DNA of 13,651 bases from a virus (lineage: Duplodnaviria > Heunggongvirae > Uroviricota > Caudoviricetes): IMG/VR virus record IMGVR_UViG_2654587685_000021. One strand, written 5' to 3'. Below, in pieces: positions 1,241 through 12,412 of the stretch; position 1 is the first letter of the stretch, and every line of letters starts with the position of its first letter. A program made the translations under genes and the position numbers. The notes beneath the pieces are model-generated. The model was not told the origin of the DNA and searched no databases. It worked only from the letters and a program-made list of their open reading frames with translations.

Positions 1241-1614
1241 AAGACCATCGGGGTAAAACGGTTTATGACGTGGCATCAGGGGACTCGTTATTTATTTCTG
1301 AACTCGGTCCATTACCGGAAAATGTTACCTGGTTGTCGCCGTATGGAGAGTATCAGAAGTGGAACGGCACATCCTGGGTGAAAGATGCAGAAGCAGAAAA
1401 ACTGTTTCGGATAAGGGAGGCGGAAGAAACAAAAAACAGCCTGATGCAGGTAGCCAGCGAGCATATTGCGCCACTTCAGGATGCCGTAGATTTGGATATT
1501 GCAACGGAGGAAGAGGCATCGTTACTGGCTGCATGGAAGACATACCGGGTATTGTTGAATCGTGTTAATACAGCGGTAGCAGCGGATGTTGAGTGGCCAG
1601 TCGCCCCACAATAA
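1241..1614 (+). pseudogene. Tail fibre assembly protein (Tfa / P2 gpG-like), 3' fragment; the 5' part is displaced by the IS2 insertion
   Basis: The translation after the IS2 end (..[64 protein letters not shown]...[13 protein letters not shown]...) matches the C-terminal two thirds of E. coli prophage Tfa proteins as I recall them. The listed ORF start at 1204 is inside IS2 and is an artefact. Confidence 0.75.
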
Positions 1615-1657: not shown

Positions 1658-2215
1658 CTATTTATACAATACAACACCGCTCTTTTTAGTTATATATGTG
1701 CAGTTCGATGGTATATCTTTATTTATAAAAGACATTGCACCTATTTTTACATTATCCCCAATTTTACGTGATAATCCAATGATGCAACAATTAGCTCCGA
1801 TATCAACGTTACTACCAATTTTTACTCTTGAACCAGGCATGTCACCATCTATCTGTCCAATGGTAGTATTCTGTCGTAACACCAGATTTTCACCAGCATC
1901 AACAGCAAAATGAACAACAATTCCAGCATGATGGGGAATTGTTAACCCTTTTCCAATATTTGCGCCCAATCCAATTTCACAACCAAATTTGTTAATTATT
2001 TTACTGTTTAACTTTTTGGCTGCTTTCTTATGTAATTTATTACCATTAATATACATTTCGTTAGCCAACCGCCACCAGAAAAGGAAATTCCGGTTACGCT
2101 GTTTTTTCTCTCTTAAAAGCCTCCAGATATCCATACGTTTCCGCCGAATTACTTCATATTTCCAGAAGTTTTTTAAATTAGTAGAGTCCCCAAATAAAAC
2201 AAAGTGAATTGCCAT
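1658..2215 (-). CDS. Hexapeptide-repeat acyltransferase, CysE/WcaB-like (serine or polysaccharide O-acetyltransferase family); AT-rich cargo gene
   Basis: The translation has the ...WWRLANEMYINGNKLHKKAAKKL... helix followed by a hexapeptide-repeat core (GCEIGLGANIGKGLTIPHHAGIVVHFAVDAGENLVLRQNTTIGQ...VKIGSNVDIGANCCIIG) like CysE and WcaB. The start is uncertain: ATG at 2215 or GTG at 2263 (the ORF-track start), neither with a good Shine-Dalgarno. The region is visibly AT-rich compared with the flanking tail genes. Confidence 0.65.
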   Translation of the reverse strand: MAIHFVLFGDSTNLKNFWKYEVIRRKRMDIWRLLREKKQRNRNFLFWWRLANEMYINGNKLHKKAAKKLNSKIINKFGCEIGLGANIGKGLTIPHHAGIVVHFAVDAGENLVLRQNTTIGQIDGDMPGSRVKIGSNVDIGANCCIIGLSRKIGDNVKIGAMSFINKDIPSNCTYITKKSGVVLYK

Positions 2216-2386
2216 TAAGTAAGACAGCACGATAATCTCCTTAATTATTATTTCAGACCACACATATTATAAGGTTAAGAGATTATAAAATCCTGTTGTT
2301 TGTTATTCAAAAACAATTTTCTGAGAAGGACATACAACAGCAAGTCGCCAGTCACCTTCATCAGGAAATTGGCGACATACGTTAAA

Positions 2387-2881
2387 TCAGAGCAGCCCCT
2401 TAACTGAGCTGGTCGCGCTATTAAGGGATGATGTCACCTTATCTTTGAAGCCGGACAACATATCGCTGAACGATGAGGATTGCAGGCGCTCCCGCAAATC
2501 CTCATCACAGCGTTCAAGAGTCAGTGAAAATTCTATCTTTTTCGCCTTACCGTAGCGATCAAACTCGGAGCGGGTCGTATTCGTTTCGGTCAGGACATAC
2601 ATGCCGTAAATCTGCCCGACGCCATCAATCAGAGGCCAGGGCCGTCCTGTATACGCCTGCGTGGTCAGCAGAGACAGCGACACTTCGCCACCTGTAATTT
2701 CAGGATAAAGCACACCAGAAAGAACGATGCGATCATCACCTGCACCGATATACTGCCAGCTTGCTGAACGGTTAACGCGTTCATTTTTCACATGCCGCCA
2801 GCTTTTGTTTTGCTGTAACTGCTGATGCGGCAGCGTGCGCAGCTCAAAAACAAACATGCCATAGATCATCATCATGGCCAT
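2387..2881 (-). CDS. U: Phage tail protein gpU (P2 U-like)
   Basis: 164-aa ORF directly after the tape-measure gene, in the position and size expected for gpU. The start probably lies among the MAMMM methionines: GAGGAG sits about 8 nt before the third Met at 2875. Confidence 0.75.
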   Translation of the reverse strand: MAMMMIYGMFVFELRTLPHQQLQQNKSWRHVKNERVNRSASWQYIGAGDDRIVLSGVLYPEITGGEVSLSLLTTQAYTGRPWPLIDGVGQIYGMYVLTETNTTRSEFDRYGKAKKIEFSLTLERCDEDLRERLQSSSFSDMLSGFKDKVTSSLNSATSSVKGLL

Positions 2882-2887
2882 GACTCC

Positions 2888-5704
2888 TCAATCTTTATCG
2901 TAAAAACTGCCACGCCCGGCACGGGCGCGCCGTTCCATTTCTGCCCTGACCATTTCACCGACCAGTTTCGCCAGTTCGCGGGGATTCTGCGTAACAACGT
3001 TATGCAGATGAACATGAATTTCACCGCCAAATCTGGAGACAGCAGGCTCCCGATTACGGGAAGCTGCAGGAACTGATGCCACTGGCGATCGTATGGCCTC
3101 CGCCACCGGGCGGGAGCTGGCCGCAACAACAGGGACCAGCGCCGGAGGCAGCGGAGCCGGGACTACGGGTGTGATATTAATTGCGGGGGCAGGCTTACTG
3201 ACCTGCGCAATCTTCCGCTCCTGCCACTCCCCACGAACAGCAAGTGCGCGGGGCAGGTTCTTAAAGACAATATCGCCAGGGCCAATGCGTTTTTTCGTCT
3301 CATCAACCAGCTTACCTGTGTTATCAGCAATTTTGCTGAGTCTGCGTAGCGTCCCGGTATTGCTGTCTGTGAGCGGTTTGTTGTCTTTGGGTTTATCACC
3401 TCCGGTGCCATTGCCATTTTCCACAGGCTTCGGCGGATTGATTTTCGCCAGGTCCCCCTGAAGTAAGGCAACCTTATCCTGAAGAATGGCCGCACGCTGT
3501 GCGTCTTCGATTTTCTTGCGCGCCCTTTCCGCTTCATCCGGAAGGACGCCAAGTTTTTCAAGTATCCACGCCAGCGTATCCAGTAGCATTTTTGCAGGTG
3601 TCAGAACAAGTTGTAACGCACCGCCAAGAACGTTACCGAATATCTCGCCAGCACTGGTACATTTATCCAGCGTTTCCTTGCTGGACTCCATCGGTGACAG
3701 CAGCGATTTAAACCAGTTAAACACCTGGCTGATCCCGCTTCCGATTGCGTCAAAAACAGGGCCAAACCGTTCAAAGGTTTCACGCAACGGGTTCAGCCTT
3801 TCCATAATCCCGCTGAACACCCCGGCAAAAAATGCCCTGATGGGATCCCAGTATTTCCAGATAAGGACGGCAGCTCCGGCAAGCGCAGCCACGATAAGAC
3901 CAACCGGACTGAACAGCGCCCCGATAGCGCCTCCCAGTAAAGAAACGGAACCCGTCACCATTCCCCATAGTGCTGGCAGGACCCTGACAGCATTCATTGA
4001 TCCGGTCAGGAGAGAAAAACCAAGACGCAGTTTTGCCAGCGGACCAGCAAGCACACCAATAGCCAGCGACAACGAGCCAACCGTTGCAGTCATTGCCAGC
4101 AACGCACCGCCTGCTATCAGTAGCTGGCGCGTCAGTGCCGGATGGGCCTGCGCCAGCGCCGTCACCCTTGATACCACCCGCGTGAGCCACTGCGTGACAG
4201 AACGCAGCGGACCGTCAATCAGATCTGCAATGCGGATGCGCAACCCTTCCCATGCACTGCCGAGTGATTTCAGATCGCCGTCAAGGTTGTTGGCCATAAC
4301 CTTTGCTGTGCGTTCAGCCTCACCGCGCGCGCCTTCAAGTTCTTTTCTCAGTTTGGGTAAGGAACCGTCACCCACTGCATCAACGAGCGCCATAAACGAT
4401 GTGAAAGCCTCTTCTCCGGCAATGTCCTTAAAGAACGATACCCGGTCAACTTCCCCGTATTTGCGGGTGGCTTTATAAAGGTCGGCCAGCACATCCTCCA
4501 TCGGGCGCATTTTACCCCCGGCATCCGAGACGGACACGCCCAGCTCTTTCAGAGCTTCTGCCGCCGCCTTTGGCGGTGATGCCAGACGAGCCAGGCTGGC
4601 ACGCATTGCCGTCCCGGCATCACTCCCTCTGATGCCCATATTCGCCAGCACACCAGCCATCGCTGCGGCCTGCTCCAGCGATATTCCCAGCTTACCCGCC
4701 ACCGGACCTGCATATTTCATGGTTTCGCCCAGTGCGCGAAGGTCAGTGTTGGTACGGGTAAACGCTGCGGTGAGTGTGTCACCGACCCGGTCCATCTGGT
4801 CAGCAGAAAGGCCGAACTGCGTCAGGATATTTGAGCCAATATCTGCCGTCTCGCCGAGATCCATACCGCCAGCCGTTGCCATGCTCAGCACTCCGGGAAG
4901 CGCAGCCTGAATGGCCTGCGGTGTGAAGCCTGCCATTGCAAGAAATGCCTGCCCACTGGCGGCATCGCCTGCGGTGAACTGCGTTTCAGAGCCAAGTTTT
5001 AACGCCTGCTCACGCAGCGCCTTAAACTGCGGGCTGTTCTGGTCGATTCGCGTCAGCGCCTGAACGCGGGACATCTCTTTGCCGAACCCGATCGCGGGCT
5101 GCAAAAAACGCCCGGCAGCATAGCCGCCCGCCGCTGCCGCACCAATTGCCAGCGCACCACCTGTTTTCAGTTTTCCCGCGGTTTCCTGCGCGCGCGAATA
5201 CCACTCACGCGCCCGCGTTACACGCGCAAGCGCCTGCCGTTCGCGTTCAAGCTGGTTGTTGTACTGTTCGGTGCGTCTGATGGCCTGCTGGATGGTGTTA
5301 TCGCTGCCTGTCAGGGAAATGCCGTGGCGTTTCAGCTCTCCGCCAAGCTCCCGCATTTTCTGAATTTCCCGTGTGCGCGATTCATTCAGGCGTTCAAGCC
5401 GGGTGCTTAACTGCTGCATCAGCTTTTGTTGTTTTTCGCTGAGCACTGTACCCGTGCGTTGTAACTGATTAAGGGCGTTAAGCTGGCGTCGTGCTTTCAC
5501 GATACCCGCATCCGCTTTACTGACAGCGTCGCGGGCGCGCTCAAATGAACGAGCCTGACGCTCGAGATTTTTAATCGCCCCCTGCGTTCGCTGGATGGAG
5601 TCACCAAACTGCCCCATCAGGCGGCGGGCGTTTTCGGCAGGCCGGGTCAGCCTGTCAACGGCGCTGAAAGCGACCCGGATATCAAGAGTCTTCATTGTCT
5701 GCAT
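2888..5704 (-). CDS. T: Phage tail tape measure protein gpT (P2 T-like)
   Basis: Very long ORF with a coiled-coil, Arg/Gln/Glu-rich N-terminal part, Gly/Ala-rich hydrophobic central segments and a Pro-rich C-terminus, sitting between E/E' and U. The ORF is open to 5731, but a start at MQTMKTLDIRVAF (5704 or 5695) fits the E' stop at 5682 better; the exact start is uncertain. Confidence 0.85.
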   Translation of the reverse strand: MQTMKTLDIRVAFSAVDRLTRPAENARRLMGQFGDSIQRTQGAIKNLERQARSFERARDAVSKADAGIVKARRQLNALNQLQRTGTVLSEKQQKLMQQLSTRLERLNESRTREIQKMRELGGELKRHGISLTGSDNTIQQAIRRTEQYNNQLERERQALARVTRAREWYSRAQETAGKLKTGGALAIGAAAAGGYAAGRFLQPAIGFGKEMSRVQALTRIDQNSPQFKALREQALKLGSETQFTAGDAASGQAFLAMAGFTPQAIQAALPGVLSMATAGGMDLGETADIGSNILTQFGLSADQMDRVGDTLTAAFTRTNTDLRALGETMKYAGPVAGKLGISLEQAAAMAGVLANMGIRGSDAGTAMRASLARLASPPKAAAEALKELGVSVSDAGGKMRPMEDVLADLYKATRKYGEVDRVSFFKDIAGEEAFTSFMALVDAVGDGSLPKLRKELEGARGEAERTAKVMANNLDGDLKSLGSAWEGLRIRIADLIDGPLRSVTQWLTRVVSRVTALAQAHPALTRQLLIAGGALLAMTATVGSLSLAIGVLAGPLAKLRLGFSLLTGSMNAVRVLPALWGMVTGSVSLLGGAIGALFSPVGLIVAALAGAAVLIWKYWDPIRAFFAGVFSGIMERLNPLRETFERFGPVFDAIGSGISQVFNWFKSLLSPMESSKETLDKCTSAGEIFGNVLGGALQLVLTPAKMLLDTLAWILEKLGVLPDEAERARKKIEDAQRAAILQDKVALLQGDLAKINPPKPVENGNGTGGDKPKDNKPLTDSNTGTLRRLSKIADNTGKLVDETKKRIGPGDIVFKNLPRALAVRGEWQERKIAQVSKPAPAINITPVVPAPLPPALVPVVAASSRPVAEAIRSPVASVPAASRNREPAVSRFGGEIHVHLHNVVTQNPRELAKLVGEMVRAEMERRARAGRGSFYDKD

Positions 5705-5900
5705 TCCCGCTGCGAAGTGCCGCCCGCTCACGCCAGCTAACCACTTCGCCGGGCGTCATCATGAAGATTTCGGCGGGCGACCAGTTAAAAATAACGGCAA
5801 TATCTGCCACAAAGTCTTCTATGTGCTCAAAGCACACAACCGTGATCAGGCTTCCGTCGCCTGTTCGTTCTTCCCGCCAGAGTCCGCACCGCTCAAAAAA
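5682..5900 (-). CDS. E': E' extension of the tail chaperone, made only as the gpE+E' fusion by -1 frameshifting
   Basis: The E' frame is -1 relative to E. It is closed upstream by TGA at 5933-5931 and open from the slip site to the stop at 5682-5684. It overlaps the 3' end of E, as in P2 E/E'. Confidence 0.7.
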   Translation of the reverse strand, partial: FFERCGLWREERTGDGSLITVVCFEHIEDFVADIAVIFNWSPAEIFMMTPGEVVSWRERAALRSGNADNEDS

Positions 5901-6211
5901 TTTACGGCAACCACACATAACTGAATAAAGTCACGGGATGCCATTTTTTTGATCGTCACTTCATCCAGTCGCGGTGATGTCACGCGTGACAGCAGCGTAA
6001 ACATGGATTCCGCTTTCAGATTCAGCACATCAGACAGCGACAAATCTCGCAGAGATCCAGCCTGCTCAATAGCCCCGGTGATCTCCACATACGTGATTTT
6101 TTCGCCGCCTCGCTCAATTGGTTGGGTAAGTTTTACACCACGCTCACTGGTTTCTTTCACAGTGTCAGCAACTACCGTGTTTTCGGTATCGATGTTTTTC
6201 GTCTCTTTCAT
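5846..6211 (-). CDS. E: Phage tail assembly chaperone gpE (P2 E-like)
   Basis: 121-aa acidic protein between the tube and tape-measure genes. AAGGAG lies 7 nt before the ATG at 6211. It contains the frameshift site near its 3' end. Confidence 0.8.
   Translation of the reverse strand: MKETKNIDTENTVVADTVKETSERGVKLTQPIERGGEKITYVEITGAIEQAGSLRDLSLSDVLNLKAESMFTLLSRVTSPRLDEVTIKKMASRDFIQLCVVAVNFLSGADSGGKNEQATEA
5894..5900 (-). promoter_or_regulatory. Programmed -1 frameshift slippery heptamer T TTT TTG (E to E+E')
   Basis: The minus strand reads AAT TTT TTG AGC in the E frame (..V N F L S..). The heptamer TTTTTTG is the slip sequence I recall for the P2 E/E' frameshift, and the -1 frame continues into the 5682..5918 ORF. 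Confidence 0.75.
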
Positions 6212-6265
6212 CAGGAAACTCCTTTCAGTCAGAGGCGACGCACTGCGCCGCCTGCATATTACTTA

Positions 6266-6778
6266 TCAGCCAAGCCCGAGCGCGGAACGGATGCGATCGG
6301 GCACAATGTCCTTGCCGTCCTTCCGGTAAATGAAGTTCAGCAGGTCAATCTCCCACAACGGGCGATCGTTAACACTCAGCTTGTAGTAGGTGTTTTTAAT
6401 GGCGTAAGTGTGTGATGTGGCTTCGCCCTGTTTGGCTTCCCCCATATCAATTTCCGTCACACGTCCGCGCATTTCGACTTCATACAGGTCGCTTTCTGCA
6501 TCGGTGTAATATTCACCCGCAAAACGCAGCAGCGTGCCGTCAATCGTGCCGCCATACTTAAGGAACAGCTCACGAACTGCGCCCCCCATGACAAAGCTCG
6601 CATCAAGCGCGGAGTCGTCCAGACCGAGATCAATACTTACCGCACCCATCATGCCACCACCCCGGTAGCTGTCGGTTTTGCGCGTCAGCTTAGGCAGAGT
6701 GACGGACGTCACCTTACCCACTTCGTTTTCACCATCCACAAACAGCGTAAAAAAGCGAAGATGTTTTGGTACAGCCAT
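6266..6778 (-). CDS. FII: Phage major tail tube protein (P2 FII-like)
   Basis: 170-aa ORF immediately after the sheath gene; its ATG overlaps the sheath stop (TGATG on the minus strand). Size and position match gpFII. Confidence 0.85.
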   Translation of the reverse strand: MAVPKHLRFFTLFVDGENEVGKVTSVTLPKLTRKTDSYRGGGMMGAVSIDLGLDDSALDASFVMGGAVRELFLKYGGTIDGTLLRFAGEYYTDAESDLYEVEMRGRVTEIDMGEAKQGEATSHTYAIKNTYYKLSVNDRPLWEIDLLNFIYRKDGKDIVPDRIRSALGLG

Positions 6779-7962
6779 CAGGCACCTCCCAGCACCGCAA
6801 ATGCGGGTTCAAAGTATTCATCAGTAAACGTCTGGTAAAGCTCCATGTCTTCCAGTGGCGGAACGGGCGTATATTTGTAGCGAATACGCACACGCCCCTG
6901 ACGTAAATCCGTGGTGCTGTTATCCACCACGTCATACCAGCACTCCGCGCCAATCAGTTTCCCGGCAGTAACCAGCGAATCCAGTTTTGCCCTGATGGCA
7001 CTGATAACATCCTTCACGTTCGCAGGCGTCAGTGGACTGTCGATGGTTTCAAACTGCGCTTCCGCAATTGAATCAGCCAGCACCTGTGCGGTTCGGGTAT
7101 ACACCTCAAAGATGTAGGCGTTCGTTTCCGGTGTGCGGTTGCCCCAGAAGCGGAACCCGTTGCGACGAATAATGGTCGTGATTTCTTTGTTGTTGAGGCT
7201 GTTGGCATCACTGTCTTCGGCCTGCAACGACCAGAAAACATGCCTGGACATCCCCAGCACATTTTTAACAGGAACGTTGGACAGCGATTTGTGCCAGCCC
7301 TGCTCATGGTCAATGTACGCACGAAGGCCGCACGCATAGGCAGGCGCGGGGAACGTTTCGTTTTTGCCACTTTTCGGGTTGTAGGCGATGAAGTCCGGCC
7401 ATAAGAGCATCACCTCACGTTCGTTGAATTTCTGGCGGTAGGTAATTGCCTCAGCCATCGTGTTACAGTCATGACATGAGGCATACACAAACGCGCGCAG
7501 TTTACCCGCAATCACGCACAGGGATTTTGTCACCGCCTCCGTGTCCAGCTCCGGCGCGGCCAGAATACGCGGACGGTATCCGATGCTTTCATCCTGCTCT
7601 GCAACAAGCAGCGCATACATCCCCGTATAGCTGCCGTCAGATTCAGAACCACCGATAACCAGTTGATCCTGCGTCTTACCGCCTTCTTCTTTGTGTTCAG
7701 CCACGCGAACGACGATCACTTTTGTGCTCACCTGGTCTGCAATAGCCTTAAGCGCACGATAAAGCGTCCCCGTAGTCCCGCATTTTCCCAGCACGTCATT
7801 GACGCGGGTCAGCAGTGTGGGCTTGTTCAGCGGGAACAGCTCCGCGTCCGCATCATCCGCCGTTGCCACGATACCGATAACACTGGAATCAACATCATTA
7901 ATCGCTGTTACCAGGTCGGTACTTTCCGTAACACGGGCACCATGAAAACGAGTTTCACTCAT
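6778..7962 (-). CDS. FI: Phage contractile tail sheath protein (P2 FI-like)
   Basis: 394-aa ORF with motifs I recall from P2 gpFI (..DADAE.FPLNKP.., LRAF.Y, WPDF, QGWHK.LSNV, RR.GFRFWGNRT, YTRTAQV, Y.YTPVPPLE). Confidence 0.9.
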   Translation of the reverse strand: MSETRFHGARVTESTDLVTAINDVDSSVIGIVATADDADAELFPLNKPTLLTRVNDVLGKCGTTGTLYRALKAIADQVSTKVIVVRVAEHKEEGGKTQDQLVIGGSESDGSYTGMYALLVAEQDESIGYRPRILAAPELDTEAVTKSLCVIAGKLRAFVYASCHDCNTMAEAITYRQKFNEREVMLLWPDFIAYNPKSGKNETFPAPAYACGLRAYIDHEQGWHKSLSNVPVKNVLGMSRHVFWSLQAEDSDANSLNNKEITTIIRRNGFRFWGNRTPETNAYIFEVYTRTAQVLADSIAEAQFETIDSPLTPANVKDVISAIRAKLDSLVTAGKLIGAECWYDVVDNSTTDLRQGRVRIRYKYTPVPPLEDMELYQTFTDEYFEPAFAVLGGA

Positions 7963-8119: not shown

Positions 8120-9220
8120 ATGACCGATACCACCATGCAATTGCTCAGTCAGAGCACAGACCCCGTGAAAATGCCGGATTTTGATATTCTCGCGGAGGGG
8201 GAAACACTGTCCGGCGTGGCAGAGCGCCTGATGAGCCTGTCACTGACCGACAACCGGGGATTTGAAGCGGACCTGCTCACCATCACGCTGGATGATGCGG
8301 ATGGTCAGTTGCAGCTACCGCCACGGGGCGCGCGCCTGACGGTTCTCATTGGCTGGAAAGGAGAACCGCTGACAGAAAAAGGCACTTACATTGTTGATGA
8401 AATCGCTCACGAAGGACCGCCGGACAGGCTGACTGTTTCAGCCAGAAGCGCAGATTTTCGGGATGAATTTAACGTTAAACGTGAGGTGTCCTGGCATGAT
8501 GTGACCGTTGAGCGCGTGGTATCCGCCATCGCTCATCGGTACGGTCTGAAACCACAAATCAGCGAAATGCTGATGGATATTGAAATCGACCACGCCGACC
8601 AGACCGAAGAAAGCGACATGTCCTTCCTTACGCGCATGGCGGAAATGCTGGGCGCAATCACTACGGTAAAAAGCAGTAATCTGTTATTCATCATGCCAGG
8701 CGGTGGCGTGAACGCACAGGGCCAGCCGTTGCCATCGTTCGCCATCACGCGCAGCAGTGGCGATCGCCATCAGTTCCGCATTGCTGACCGCGAAGCGTAT
8801 ACGGGGGTACGTGCTTACTGGCTTGATCTTAATTACGGGAAAAAGAAAAAAGTCAGCGTGAAACGCCGCAAACCGAAAAAGGAGAAAAGCAGCAGCCGTG
8901 AAGGTGACTATATGGAAGGTGCGGAAGGCAACGTGTTTGTGTTACGCAAGACTTATCAGAACGAGCAGGCAGCAAGACGTGCAGCGGCGGCAAAGTGGCA
9001 GCAGCTACAACGCGGAGCCGCATCATTCTCCATCACGCTGGCGCGTGGACGCGCAGAACTCTATCCCGAAATGCATGGCACGGTGACAGGCTTCAAAAGT
9101 GACATCGATAATCAGGACTGGATTATTGCAAAAGCCGAGCACACCATTGATAACAGCGGCTTTACCACACAGCTTGAGCTTGAAGCAAAAATCCCGGAAT
9201 GGATAGCAGAAACAGAATGA
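8120..9220 (+). CDS. D: Phage tail protein D (P2 gpD / late control gene D family)
   Basis: The translation from MTDTTMQLL... has the gpD-type blocks (LTITLDDADGQLQLPPRGARLTVLIGWKG, SARSADFR, SFLTRMAE, a KKKKVSVKRRKPKKEK basic stretch, FSITLARGRAELYPE, SGFTTQLELE). GGGAGGG lies 6 nt before the ATG at 8120. The ORF-track start at 7988 is an upstream extension with no support. Confidence 0.85.
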   Translation: MTDTTMQLLSQSTDPVKMPDFDILAEGETLSGVAERLMSLSLTDNRGFEADLLTITLDDADGQLQLPPRGARLTVLIGWKGEPLTEKGTYIVDEIAHEGPPDRLTVSARSADFRDEFNVKREVSWHDVTVERVVSAIAHRYGLKPQISEMLMDIEIDHADQTEESDMSFLTRMAEMLGAITTVKSSNLLFIMPGGGVNAQGQPLPSFAITRSSGDRHQFRIADREAYTGVRAYWLDLNYGKKKKVSVKRRKPKKEKSSSREGDYMEGAEGNVFVLRKTYQNEQAARRAAAAKWQQLQRGAASFSITLARGRAELYPEMHGTVTGFKSDIDNQDWIIAKAEHTIDNSGFTTQLELEAKIPEWIAETE

Positions 9221-9619
9221 GCAAATTAGATGTATTGACTCAAACCAGAACTGACACACTCACAGCACAGTGCCAGACCCAATCTGGCAGCCCGCTTTGT
9301 GCCTAGAGCAGGTGTTGCTTATGTAACAGTTAATCCACGGATAGTGGTCATGAATGCTGGTTGAAGTTGTATTGCCATGAGTGGTCAATTAGGGACTCAC
9401 TTATTATCGCGTGCTCACCATTGATGGGTAAGATCATGCATTTCGGCTACTGTACTTCGCGAATCCTCCGCACACAGGCAACACCTGATTTAAGAACAGA
9501 GGGAGATGATGACGCAAGGAAGATTTATTATCGTGCATGTGGCAGATGATCTTTTAGCTGCCGGAGTGATAAATTACACCTATTTTCGATAAGTGTTTTT
9601 GTTATAGAACATTAATTTC

Positions 9620-10759
9620 GTGGGAAACAATAAAGTGAAATTAGGAAGAAATGATAAGTGCTGGTGTAATTCAGGACTTAAGTATAAAAAGTGCCATCTT
9701 GGTCGAGATCGTGAAACTCCGGTATCCAAAGCCGAGGCACTGAAATTTTCAAAGTCTCTCTCGCAGAGAAAGGCATGTTATGCGCCAGCATCCATGCACG
9801 AAGATTGTGATAAACGCATCGTTCAGGCGCATACGATATCTAAGAGCAGTAGCCTTAAGGCGATCGCCGACTCCAGCAATCACGTCATGGGGGTGATAAT
9901 GAACTTAGCAAGCCTGATGAGAAACAACGGAAAATGGCTTCCCGAGAAGATCGGTATCAATCAGGCATCCACTTTTACAGGATTTTGTGCAGTTCATGAC
10001 AGAATCTTATTTTCATGCCTAGAGAACGAAAAATTTACAGGCACGGACGAGCAGTGCTTTGCCTTAATGTTTCGTTCATTGTCTAAAGAAATTTATGCCA
10101 AAGAAGGGGGAGTGCTATCTTCTGATTTTGCTAAAAATGCCGATAAAGGAAAGCTACAAGTTGAACAGTATTATATTCAGAAATTAATCGACCAGCACCA
10201 AAGTGGCTTAAATGCAGCAATAATTGAATTAAATAATCTTAAAACTAGCCTCGACCGCATCCTACTTAGCAGGCAATTTTCAGAAATTGAAAGTGTTATC
10301 TTCACTTTTGCAGAGCCTTTACCAATTGTAGTTTCGTCAATTCTTTCACCGGAGAGGGATTTCGATGGGACCAAAATTCAGGATTTGAGCGATCTTACAG
10401 TGTCGGCGGAACAAGTATGTTTCAATGCTTTTTCCTGCGGAGGTAAGGGATATGTTGTGTTCAGTTGGCTGAGAACTTCAACAATTATCAGACGTTTTAT
10501 ACGGACACTAATTAAGATCCCAGCTAACAGGATGTTCAATACCCTTCTGTATTTTTTCTTCACAAAGGCCGAAAATACATATTCATCCCCTGAGTGGTGG
10601 GACAGGCTCAGTGATAAACAGCGAGAGAATATCGGCAACATGATTATGTCAGGGGTTGAATTTTTTGGCATACCTACATCACAGGTTGATCATTCCGTTG
10701 ATTATAACGCCGCTGCACTTGAAGAGATAACATGCAGCAACAACGAAATTTGCAGCTGA
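9620..10759 (+). CDS. Hypothetical 379-aa protein with an N-terminal SEC-C-type zinc-binding motif; AT-rich cargo gene between D and ogr (candidate anti-phage or accessory function)
   Basis: Residues 14-26, CWCNSGLKYKKCH, fit the SecA C-terminal SEC-C consensus (CxCxSGxKYKxC[H/C]). The rest has no domain I can name. The start is GTG at 9620; the frame opens at 9608 after TAG, and the first in-frame ATG would delete the motif. No clear Shine-Dalgarno. AT-rich relative to the tail genes. Confidence 0.7.
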   Translation: MGNNKVKLGRNDKCWCNSGLKYKKCHLGRDRETPVSKAEALKFSKSLSQRKACYAPASMHEDCDKRIVQAHTISKSSSLKAIADSSNHVMGVIMNLASLMRNNGKWLPEKIGINQASTFTGFCAVHDRILFSCLENEKFTGTDEQCFALMFRSLSKEIYAKEGGVLSSDFAKNADKGKLQVEQYYIQKLIDQHQSGLNAAIIELNNLKTSLDRILLSRQFSEIESVIFTFAEPLPIVVSSILSPERDFDGTKIQDLSDLTVSAEQVCFNAFSCGGKGYVVFSWLRTSTIIRRFIRTLIKIPANRMFNTLLYFFFTKAENTYSSPEWWDRLSDKQRENIGNMIMSGVEFFGIPTSQVDHSVDYNAAALEEITCSNNEICS

Positions 10760-11048
10760 ATGTTTACATGCTGTTAGAAAAAGCGGGCTGAACAATCATT
10801 TCGGGATTGTAACAGATAAGATGGCACTGCCCGCTTGCTTCCCGATATGCACCTCAGCCAATAAACTTATGTAAGCAACCGATTTCCATTTATGCGGAGG
10901 TTATCAAAGTTGTTGGAGTTGCGAACTTCCGCTCTTCGCACAAAGCGTACCGCTAGGTTTGATTGTATTCTGGCTGCGCAAACTGTCAGTTGGAGTCTGA
11001 GCTATTACAACTTAGAATAGCGGCAGCACCACGTTAAGGGAGGTCGCT

Positions 11049-11309
11049 ATGTTCCGTTGTCCGCTTTGTGGCGCATCTGCCCGAATCCGCACCAGTCGTC
11101 CGGAAAACGATTCAAACACTGTGCGGCAAAAGTATTACCAGTGTAACAACCTGGAATGCGGCGTATGCTTCTCAACACTGGAAGCTTTCCATAAATTCAC
11201 ATCAAAACACGCCTCCGGCGTTCACTCTTCGGAAGGTATCCCGTGGCATGAGCTGCCAGCTTCACACAGGGGAAACAATCAGATGAGTTTGCCTTTACCT
11301 CAGAATTAA
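11049..11309 (+). CDS. ogr: Ogr/Delta-family zinc-finger late transcription activator
   Basis: MFRCPLCGASARIRTSR....YYQCNNLECGVCF has the CxxC-(22)-CxxxxC arrangement and the N-terminal consensus I recall for P2 Ogr (MFHCPLC..A.ARTSR...YHQCQN..C). AGGGAGG lies 5 nt before the ATG. It sits at the prophage end as in P2. Confidence 0.85.
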   Translation: MFRCPLCGASARIRTSRPENDSNTVRQKYYQCNNLECGVCFSTLEAFHKFTSKHASGVHSSEGIPWHELPASHRGNNQMSLPLPQN

Positions 11310-11499: not shown

Positions 11500-11640
11500 A
11501 TGTCGCAAAAATCGCTTACAGCCATCACGTTCTGCGTGACGGTAATCCTCATCATCTGGATGCTACACGGTTCGCTGTGTGAAATACGGATGAGCTTCTG
11601 GGGAGCGGAGTTTGCGGCGTTCTTACAGTGTAAGCAGTAA
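11500..11640 (+). CDS. Hok/Gef-family type I toxin (46 aa), absent from the ORF track
   Basis: ATG 11500 to TAA 11638-11640 encodes MSQKSLTAITFCVTVILIIWMLHGSLCEIRMSFWGAEFAAFLQCKQ: one N-terminal transmembrane helix followed by the Hok-family SLCE(I/L) motif and AAF(L/M). AAAGGA lies upstream; an in-frame TAG at 11470-11472 closes the frame. Confidence 0.7.
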   Translation: MSQKSLTAITFCVTVILIIWMLHGSLCEIRMSFWGAEFAAFLQCKQ

Positions 11641-11828: not shown

Positions 11829-12110
11829 TTACTCAGCATTCTCCTGCTTCCATTGCCGGATCATTTCATCGGTAACATCACCCTCATAACATACCACGTC
11901 ATACCCTCCATTACGGCTATATGCACTGCGTCCACCACATCTACTACCATTCCTTGCATGATTATAAGGACACGCACAATTGCCTGGATAAGATTCAATG
12001 GATTCTTTAATTATTTCTTTTTTGATCTGAGCATCAGACTTTCCTGTTGCTGCATATCCACTAAAAGATACTAAACAAAGGCAGATTGCCATTAATAAAC
12101 CACATCGCAT
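11829..12110 (-). CDS. Small secreted Cys-rich hypothetical protein (about 93 aa with signal peptide)
   Basis: The ORF is open to 12224, but the signal-peptide-like start MRCGLLMAICLCLVSFSGYAA|TGK begins at the ATG at 12110. The mature part has 6 Cys (..YPGNCACPYNHARNGSRCGGRSAY..VVCYEGD..). AT-rich. No family assignment from memory. Confidence 0.5.
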   Translation of the reverse strand: MRCGLLMAICLCLVSFSGYAATGKSDAQIKKEIIKESIESYPGNCACPYNHARNGSRCGGRSAYSRNGGYDVVCYEGDVTDEMIRQWKQENAE

Positions 12111-12412
12111 ACCGATACACTCTATTACTAACCAATCATAGCCCACATCATAAAATCGAGATGAGGAGTACAATACCTTTAACAAGAAGGTGTCATAACG
12201 ATAATATGTCGTGCAATTCATCAAAAAAAAGATCTATATCAAAGAGATAGAACTCTTATCAGCGCTTCAGACATCGGCATTCGAGGCAGCAGAAAAACAG
12301 TAAATCTGACGAATTTGCCTTTTCCCAAGATGTTGTCAGATTAAAAAGATAGATTAGCGCAGGTACCTGTTGGTGGATTGCAGGAGGAAAAATGAAGTCG
12401 AGTGAAAAAATC

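Follow-up and report, generated by a model that had tools for sequence, protein, structure and literature searches.

The stretch of DNA considered here ('the window': 13,651 nucleotides, IMG/VR virus record IMGVR_UViG_2654587685_000021) is the right arm of a P2-like prophage of Escherichia coli. Between the tail gene D and the late-gene activator ogr it carries a gene for a protein of 379 amino acids (aa) that begins with a SEC-C zinc-knuckle. This protein proves to be a homologue of Rugutis, a lactococcal single-gene anti-phage system that also has an N-terminal SEC-C motif, and a fold unlike that of any PDB entry (Grafakou et al. 2024, PMC11381338). Judged by sequence, the homology is established over the full length of the protein, and the E. 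coli gene is a member of a defence family described in 2024 rather than an undescribed one. By analogy with Rugutis, an anti-phage role is the best reading of the gene.

Homology to Rugutis

BLASTP aligns residues 5-347 of the 379 in the window protein to Rugutis at 26% identity (E 3e-37), and hhalign matches a profile of 38 sequences to Rugutis with a probability of 100% (E 4.6e-40, 344 aligned columns). On these results we take the homology to be whole-length. The lactococcal match can be traced to its plasmid: tblastn against PLSDB finds five Lactococcus plasmids (E 5e-28 to 5e-27), among them pUCCL633A of strain UCCL633 (E 5e-27), in which the coding sequence concerned (L003:3995-5071) specifies 359 aa and matches published Rugutis, pUCCL633_059 (WP_137016746.1). 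Rugutis is the sole SEC-C protein reported for pUCCL633 (PMC11381338). A search of 5.8 billion proteins returns a compact family of ~372 aa, its members labelled only 'SEC-C domain' or 'YecA family', from Enterobacterales, Aeromonas, Psychrobacter, Pseudoalteromonas, Halomonas, Pseudomonas and others; when 1.84 billion representatives are searched with a profile, 1501 clusters (50% identity) are recovered at E<=1e-30. At the level of sequence and architecture the window protein has all that marks Rugutis: the full-length homology, a SEC-C motif plus ~340 domain-free residues, a confident structural model unmatched in the PDB, and a single gene. The neighbours of this gene differ in every context examined, and none is a conserved partner.

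The initial annotation had offered the gene as a candidate undescribed single-gene system, and had described it as 1.1 kb long, lower in GC than its flanks, preceded by about 400 bp of non-coding DNA, and specifying a SEC-C zinc-knuckle followed by some 350 residues for which it could name no catalytic family. The description holds throughout. The open reading frame (ORF) lies 399 bp downstream of D, with no conserved ORF in between, and 289 bp upstream of ogr; its GC content, 0.41, is below that of D (0.53) and of the remaining tail genes (0.54-0.57). It starts with GTG, and a second GTG at 9635 would give the 'MKLGRN' start typical of the family. The N-terminus, CWCNSGLKYKKCH, is a SEC-C motif (Pfam PF02810, E 2e-8), invariant among 38 relatives and missing from two distant ones. 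Outside this motif the protein matches no family in Pfam, PADLOC, PHROG or NCBIfam, and its predicted structure matches no fold in the PDB or BFVD. PADLOC-DB v2.0.0 returns no system; only residues 4-50 are hit, by the SEC-C-like C-terminal ends of the E2 / E1-E2 and PDC-S12 models. As to the proposal itself, 'single-gene' stands, since no partner is conserved, while 'undescribed' falls to the full-length match with Rugutis. That the gene looked new is explained by gaps in two defence resources: as of July 2026, PADLOC and DefenseFinder are reported to lack Rugutis (PMC13335696).

Eleven very divergent members were aligned: the window protein, four gammaproteobacterial relatives, those of Shinella and Sphingomonas, Rugutis, an Enterococcus plasmid protein and two relatives that lack the SEC-C motif. 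Invariant in all 11 are C53, C63, A70, H71, L79, G112, F122, C123, H126, D127, F131, E135, R152 and D247, and nearly so are E157, K161, P244, E318, N319 and P324. Because the two relatives without SEC-C keep this core, the knuckle is dispensable for the family, and the constellation of Cys, His and acidic residues is not. The existence of such relatives is also why we would hypothesize that the knuckle is an accessory module, for docking or regulation, and not the effector.

The AlphaFold 2 (AF2) model of the window protein is a confident one (predicted local distance difference test score, pLDDT, 89.9; predicted template modelling score, pTM, 0.88). Beyond the knuckle an alpha/beta core (~50-135) is followed by a long hairpin of helices (143-217) and then by a beta-sheet region (223-284); the C-terminal part is helical. 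The set C53/C63/C123/H126 may bind a structural metal, and H71, D127, E135, R152, D247 and E318-N319 may form a putative, metal-dependent effector site. A degenerate HNH, or His-Me finger, nuclease was considered on the strength of the pattern C..C...AH...N...C..HD, and rejected: no similarity to HNH in sequence or fold was detected.

The D-ogr slot and its cassette

The D-ogr interval is a variable cargo slot, and the SEC-C gene is foreign cargo within it, not a P2 core gene. In P2, where according to the initial annotation ogr directly follows D, the two are 81 bp apart, and the gap contains the annotated ogr promoter and no cargo. In phage PhiR44_2 and in E. coli 504838, ogr comes 42 bp after D and the slot is empty. 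A query representing the empty junction is contiguous in 720 of the 1202 E. coli genomes that have this type of D and ogr, which puts the loaded fraction at ~40% of carriers, an upper estimate since the split matches include truncated prophages. The 1.83-kb interval of the window is present whole, at an identity of at least 99.5%, in 80 of 5426 complete E. coli genomes, with prophages of O26, O103, O111 and O157 strains among the carriers of the gene; other genomes match it only in the last 40-60 bp before ogr, and at the DNA level it is absent from all 50,697 INPHARED phage records. Pairwise BLAST against prophages with other cargo places the slot breakpoints at 9211-9311 on the left and at 10979-11025 on the right. 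The earlier suspicion of foreign, AT-rich cargo is thus borne out: the slot is empty in P2, in PhiR44_2 and in ~60% of related prophages, and elsewhere it holds defence-type genes. Comparison across P2-like prophages reveals a variable interval, and not a conserved P2 component shared by most relatives.

The seven other loaded slots examined hold, respectively, a restriction enzyme with a GmrSD domain, a PIN-domain protein, a DUF3800 protein with IS5, a four-gene HxsDBCA radical-SAM set, and three distinct unnamed proteins. The radical-SAM set, in E. coli A24 (L012:892-4289), is a complete His-Xaa-Ser cluster, hxsDBCA, and unusual cargo for a phage slot. The unnamed proteins (L010:3323-4345, minus strand, 340 aa; L011:3717-4382, plus strand, 221 aa; L013:2884-4281, minus strand, 465 aa) come from other E. 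coli strains, enteropathogenic E. coli E2348/69 among them; each is a candidate accessory or defence gene not yet recognised. The main defence hotspots of P2 are at gpA-gpQ and Z/fun (Rousset et al. 2022, PMC9122126; PMC13586616), and many of the occupants there are single-gene defence systems expressed from the lysogen (same sources). The D-ogr slot is not named as a defence hotspot in either paper.

The gene travels as a cassette, leader and 3' flank included. Matches of 83% nucleotide identity extend over positions 9292-10837 in Pantoea, 9314-10906 in a Salmonella island and 9571-11009 in an E. coli O155 island, and the cassette, with its ~330 bp of leader, recurs in an islet of the Pantoea chromosome, in a P4-like island of Salmonella, and in an E. 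coli island that has genes for RepL and H-NS. Measured against these relatives (E. coli O155, Salmonella and Pantoea; ~86% protein and ~83% DNA identity), the ratio of nonsynonymous to synonymous substitution rates (dN/dS) is 0.13-0.16 at a dS of ~0.5: the gene is under purifying selection. In Salmonella Typhimurium (L014:5726-15694) an 86%-identical copy sits in a P4-like island with an integrase, AlpA and a DUF927 primase, and the same island encodes PARIS (AAA_15/AAA_21 + DUF4435).

Among more distant relatives, that of K. aerogenes lies at the end of a prophage and that of K. variicola in a probable phage-plasmid; others are beside VapBC on conjugative alphaproteobacterial plasmids, and near AbiH on an Enterococcus plasmid. 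One of the relatives without SEC-C, on a Klebsiella IncR plasmid, adjoins pifC, a P-loop NTPase (probably pifA) and an Abi gene. Full-length relatives also occur in ~20 IMG/VR viral contigs, often at the contig end.

In the 80 E. coli genomes the leader is always inherited together with the gene. Because its identity across contexts, 79%, exceeds the ~63% expected for neutral sites at a dS of 0.5, some regulatory constraint on it is suggested. It is not conserved in relatives below ~80% identity. A hidden partner was sought in the leader, in the form of ToxIN-like antitoxin RNA repeats, a leader peptide or a riboswitch, and this candidate was dropped: there is no repeat array and no ORF kept across contexts, nor is there an Rfam match, or significant RNA structure or covariation (z -1.62, covariation term -0.75). 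By eye only, a weak, extended -10-like TGtTATAGA can be made out at 9600-9608. The imperfect hairpin at the 5' edge of the cassette is represented at the same position in two relatives (L026 and L018) by a clean stem with a T-run; possibly it is a terminator-like insulator after D.

Proposed function and its rivals

As a Gram-negative member of the Rugutis family, carried by a prophage, the gene probably encodes a stand-alone sensor-plus-effector that acts in an abortive-infection-like way and after DNA injection; it was probably acquired as a ~1.7-kb cassette with its leader. Rugutis gives multi-log protection against unrelated phages; it protects at low multiplicity of infection, cultures collapse or enter stasis at high multiplicity, and injection is not blocked (PMC11381338). 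Its trigger is phage c2's large terminase, in the ATPase domain of which the escape mutations lie (Mosterd et al. 2025, PMC12184496), and expression of Rugutis in a cell makes c2 TerL more toxic to it (PMC12184496). From this behaviour, a one-protein sensor and effector, turned on by some late function of the phage (probably its terminase) and aborting the infection, would be the best-supported interpretation of the window gene.

On this model, a P2-like prophage integrated at tRNA-Leu, beside pgsA, would have received the cassette and its own leader in its D-ogr slot. By analogy with Rugutis, the protein would do the lysogen no harm. Once a superinfecting phage produced its large terminase, the protein would turn toxic or block phage maturation, and the infected cell would yield no progeny. 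That the E. coli protein defends at all, and that terminase is what triggers it, we infer from its lactococcal counterpart.

A number of points weigh against this interpretation. Identity to Rugutis is only 26%, a distance at which function can drift, and in the literature searched we found no experiment on an E. coli or other proteobacterial member of the family. The effector chemistry of Rugutis itself is not known, and its trigger model is incomplete, since terminase escape alleles are still toxic when over-expressed (PMC12184496). The protein would also need to stay unresponsive to the terminase of the prophage that carries it. A consensus scan of the plus strand finds no sigma-70 promoter upstream of the ORF, and some copies, in Aeromonas, stand alone among housekeeping genes with no defence neighbours.

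One could go further. The Rugutis family (at least 1500 clusters at 50% identity, in Proteobacteria and Firmicutes) might constitute a new enzyme fold, its invariant Cys, His, Asp and Glu residues forming a metal-dependent effector site of a kind not seen before. The SEC-C knuckle might place the protein on the ribosome or on SecB, there to sample nascent or free terminase, and late in infection the outcome might be cell killing or a block to packaging. Separately, the D-ogr slot might be a defence hotspot that the papers cited above do not name, and its unnamed occupants further new systems. Taken together this is speculative, and we would be surprised, if pleasantly, were all of it to hold.

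Might the gene serve the prophage in some other way, as an addiction or toxin-type module? A self-toxic protein would then chiefly stabilise the cassette or the prophage, or keep out close relatives alone, with any effect on other phages a by-product. Toxin genes are certainly at hand—Hok/Gef just after ogr in the window, and VapBC pairs next to relatives on alphaproteobacterial plasmids—but the cassette itself contains neither an antitoxin gene as partner nor any conserved small ORF or array of repeats, its leader has no significant RNA structure, and Rugutis protects, by multiple logs, against phages that are unrelated. We regard this explanation as unlikely.

A shade less likely again is a counter-defence or other lysogenic-conversion gene that aids the P2-like phage or its host and has nothing to do with the blocking of other phages. 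Phage cargo slots are of mixed purpose (10.1101/2024.10.15.618418), another slot of this same prophage holds a gene for a likely surface-modifying acetyltransferase, and HxsABCD, which occupies the D-ogr slot elsewhere, is not an established defence system. Set against this, the only homologue to have been tested is a defence protein, and most relatives reside not in phages but on plasmids, islands or chromosomes, next to defence genes.

The RefSeq name, 'YecA family protein', suggests something different: a chaperone or secretion accessory of YecA or SecA type, concerned with the export of host or phage proteins and with no part in defence. In SecA, YecA and YchJ the SEC-C motif is reported to bind a metal, zinc or iron, and to make contact with SecB and ribosomes (10.1101/613315). 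The name derives from the SEC-C motif alone, however, and the similarity spans just ~20 residues: NCBIfam PRK10396, a model of 221 positions, matches only at positions 197-220, with 17.9 bits against a cut-off of 149. YecA proteins combine a UPF0149-type body with a C-terminal SEC-C. In the window protein the motif is N-terminal, none of the 38 members has any Pfam domain besides it, and two relatives dispense with it yet keep the conserved core. On these comparisons the name is misleading, and a role of this kind very improbable. The position of the gene, flanked by a tail gene and the late activator and sharing their strand, might suggest a structural or regulatory component conserved in P2-like phages. 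This can be dismissed: P2 and PhiR44_2 lack the gene, as do the INPHARED records at the DNA level and at least 720 genomes that have this D and ogr, and it belongs to no PHROG family.

The rest of the window, and known systems

Read from left to right, the window begins with an element of the IS3 family; a truncated gene for tail-fibre assembly comes next, and after it, on the minus strand, an AT-rich gene of acetyltransferase-like type. The tail genes gpU, gpT, gpE, gpFII and gpFI follow, also on the minus strand, and then, on the plus strand, gpD, the SEC-C ORF, ogr and a Hok/Gef-type ORF. The prophage adjoins tRNA-Leu(taa), tRNA-Cys, tRNA-Gly and pgsA, and an intact relative in E. coli SMN152SH1 (L001) has the same layout. 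Features of the D-ogr region are collected in Table 1.

Table 1. Coordinates of the D-ogr region, numbered from the first nucleotide of the window
Feature	Position	Strand	Evidence or remarks
gpD tail gene, left slot border	8120..9220	+	phrog_52 tail protein, E 1.7e-163; start MTDTTMQ at 8120
Imperfect GC-rich hairpin at 5' edge of cassette	9288..9324	+	left arm of inverted repeat I1
Mobile cassette, ~1.7 kb: leader, SEC-C/Rugutis-like gene and 3' flank	9292..10980	+	83% nucleotide identity in unrelated contexts
Non-coding leader travelling with the gene	9292..9619	+	79% identity across three unrelated contexts
Gene for Rugutis-family SEC-C protein, 379 aa	9620..10759	+	Pfam, BLASTP, hhalign; alternative start 9635
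SEC-C zinc-knuckle, residues 10-27 (C14, C16, C25, H26)	9647..9700	+	Pfam PF02810; resembles SecA C-terminal peptide structures 1ozb, 1sx0
Most conserved core, residues 53-135	9776..10024	+	invariant residues across 11 members, including Rugutis and two SEC-C-less relatives
ogr-proximal DNA, right slot border	10981..11048	+	common to all prophages of the lineage whatever their cargo; position of the ogr promoter annotated in P2
ogr late-gene activator	11049..11309	+	phrog_603; NCBIfam PRK09678, E 1.6e-11; RefSeq name in L001

The FI-FII-E-T-U block (2387-7962, minus strand) is inverted with respect to D and ogr (8120-11309, plus strand), so that FI and D start divergently, ~160 bp apart. This layout recurs in intact relatives (L001) and in phage PhiR44_2 (L004), unlike P2, in which T, U, D and ogr are all co-directional. 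The IS3-family element (1 to ~1240; orfA 1-366, orfB 324-1229) disrupts the tail-fibre assembly gene, a remnant of which persists at 1204-1614, and because of this interruption the copy of the prophage in the window is probably defective. The junction between element and prophage is found in none of the 5426 complete E. coli genomes. A match to the Rfam family IS009 lies within the assembly-gene remnant (1379-1577, plus strand).

Between the assembly gene and gpU is the acetyltransferase-like gene (1658-2263, minus strand). It is very AT-rich (GC 0.34), of the hexapeptide-repeat, serine-O-acetyltransferase kind (phrog_2154, E 1.7e-87; EpsC/CysE/WcaB-like, under the NCBIfam cut-offs), and intact in the window; in L001 it is frameshifted. 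It marks a second cargo slot, and is possibly a conversion gene that modifies surface polysaccharide. To the right of ogr, the Hok/Gef-family toxin ORF (11500-11640, plus strand; 46 aa) is kept in all examined relatives of the lineage. Between it and the tRNA-Leu attachment site is an AT-rich ORF (11829-12224, minus strand; GC 0.39), annotated in L001 as a hypothetical protein of 93 aa; its C-terminal 81 residues match phrog_27544 (E 1.5e-57), and its product has the look of an exported protein, small and rich in Cys.

Rugutis, whose role in defence is validated, has no known fold or chemistry and a trigger that is partly understood, and all work on it to date has been in Lactococcus. With a natural member in E. 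coli, carried by a compact cassette of 1.7 kb, the family enters the best genetic system there is: K-12, the BASEL and T-phage panels, and P2/P4 genetics. Current defence annotation misses the family, PADLOC-DB v2 finding no match and RefSeq mislabelling the window protein 'YecA family'. And the D-ogr slot of this widespread P2-like lineage, with its changing load of defence-type and unknown genes, is a cheap place to look for further systems.

Among known systems, the old/tin genes of gpA-gpQ and the occupants of Z/fun are, like the SEC-C gene, accessory genes, AT-rich and interchangeable, that sit in intergenic slots at fixed places in P2-like prophages (PMC9122126; PMC13586616); the SEC-C gene differs in occupying the D-ogr slot, next to attR, and in having no sequence relation to them. 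With the C-terminal metal-binding domain of SecA, and with YecA and YchJ, the window protein shares a zinc knuckle of ~20 residues, CxC...(C/H)(H/C), and the basic residues that flank it. In the window protein the knuckle is at the N-terminus, not the C-terminus, the other 350 residues are unrelated, and there is no SecA ATPase, YecA UPF0149 or YchJ domain. If the trigger of Rugutis carries over, the protein would resemble Avs and lactococcal Rhea in sensing a conserved late product of the phage, the large terminase ATPase, and unlike them it would do so without STAND NTPase, TPR or TnsE-like domains; it is related to them neither in sequence nor in fold.

The closest likeness, by far, is to Rugutis itself. 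Each is the product of a single gene on a mobile element, each has an N-terminal SEC-C, and the two, of 359 and 379 aa, can be aligned from end to end. Both yield confident AF2 models without a match in the PDB, and both keep C53, C63, A-H71, F-C123, H126-D127, E135, R152, D247 and E318-N319. They differ at T72, where Rugutis has Ser, and around residues 90-105, a region that is shorter in Rugutis, and identity overall is 26%; and the window protein is at home in a Gram-negative host and a prophage slot, whereas Rugutis resides on a plasmid.

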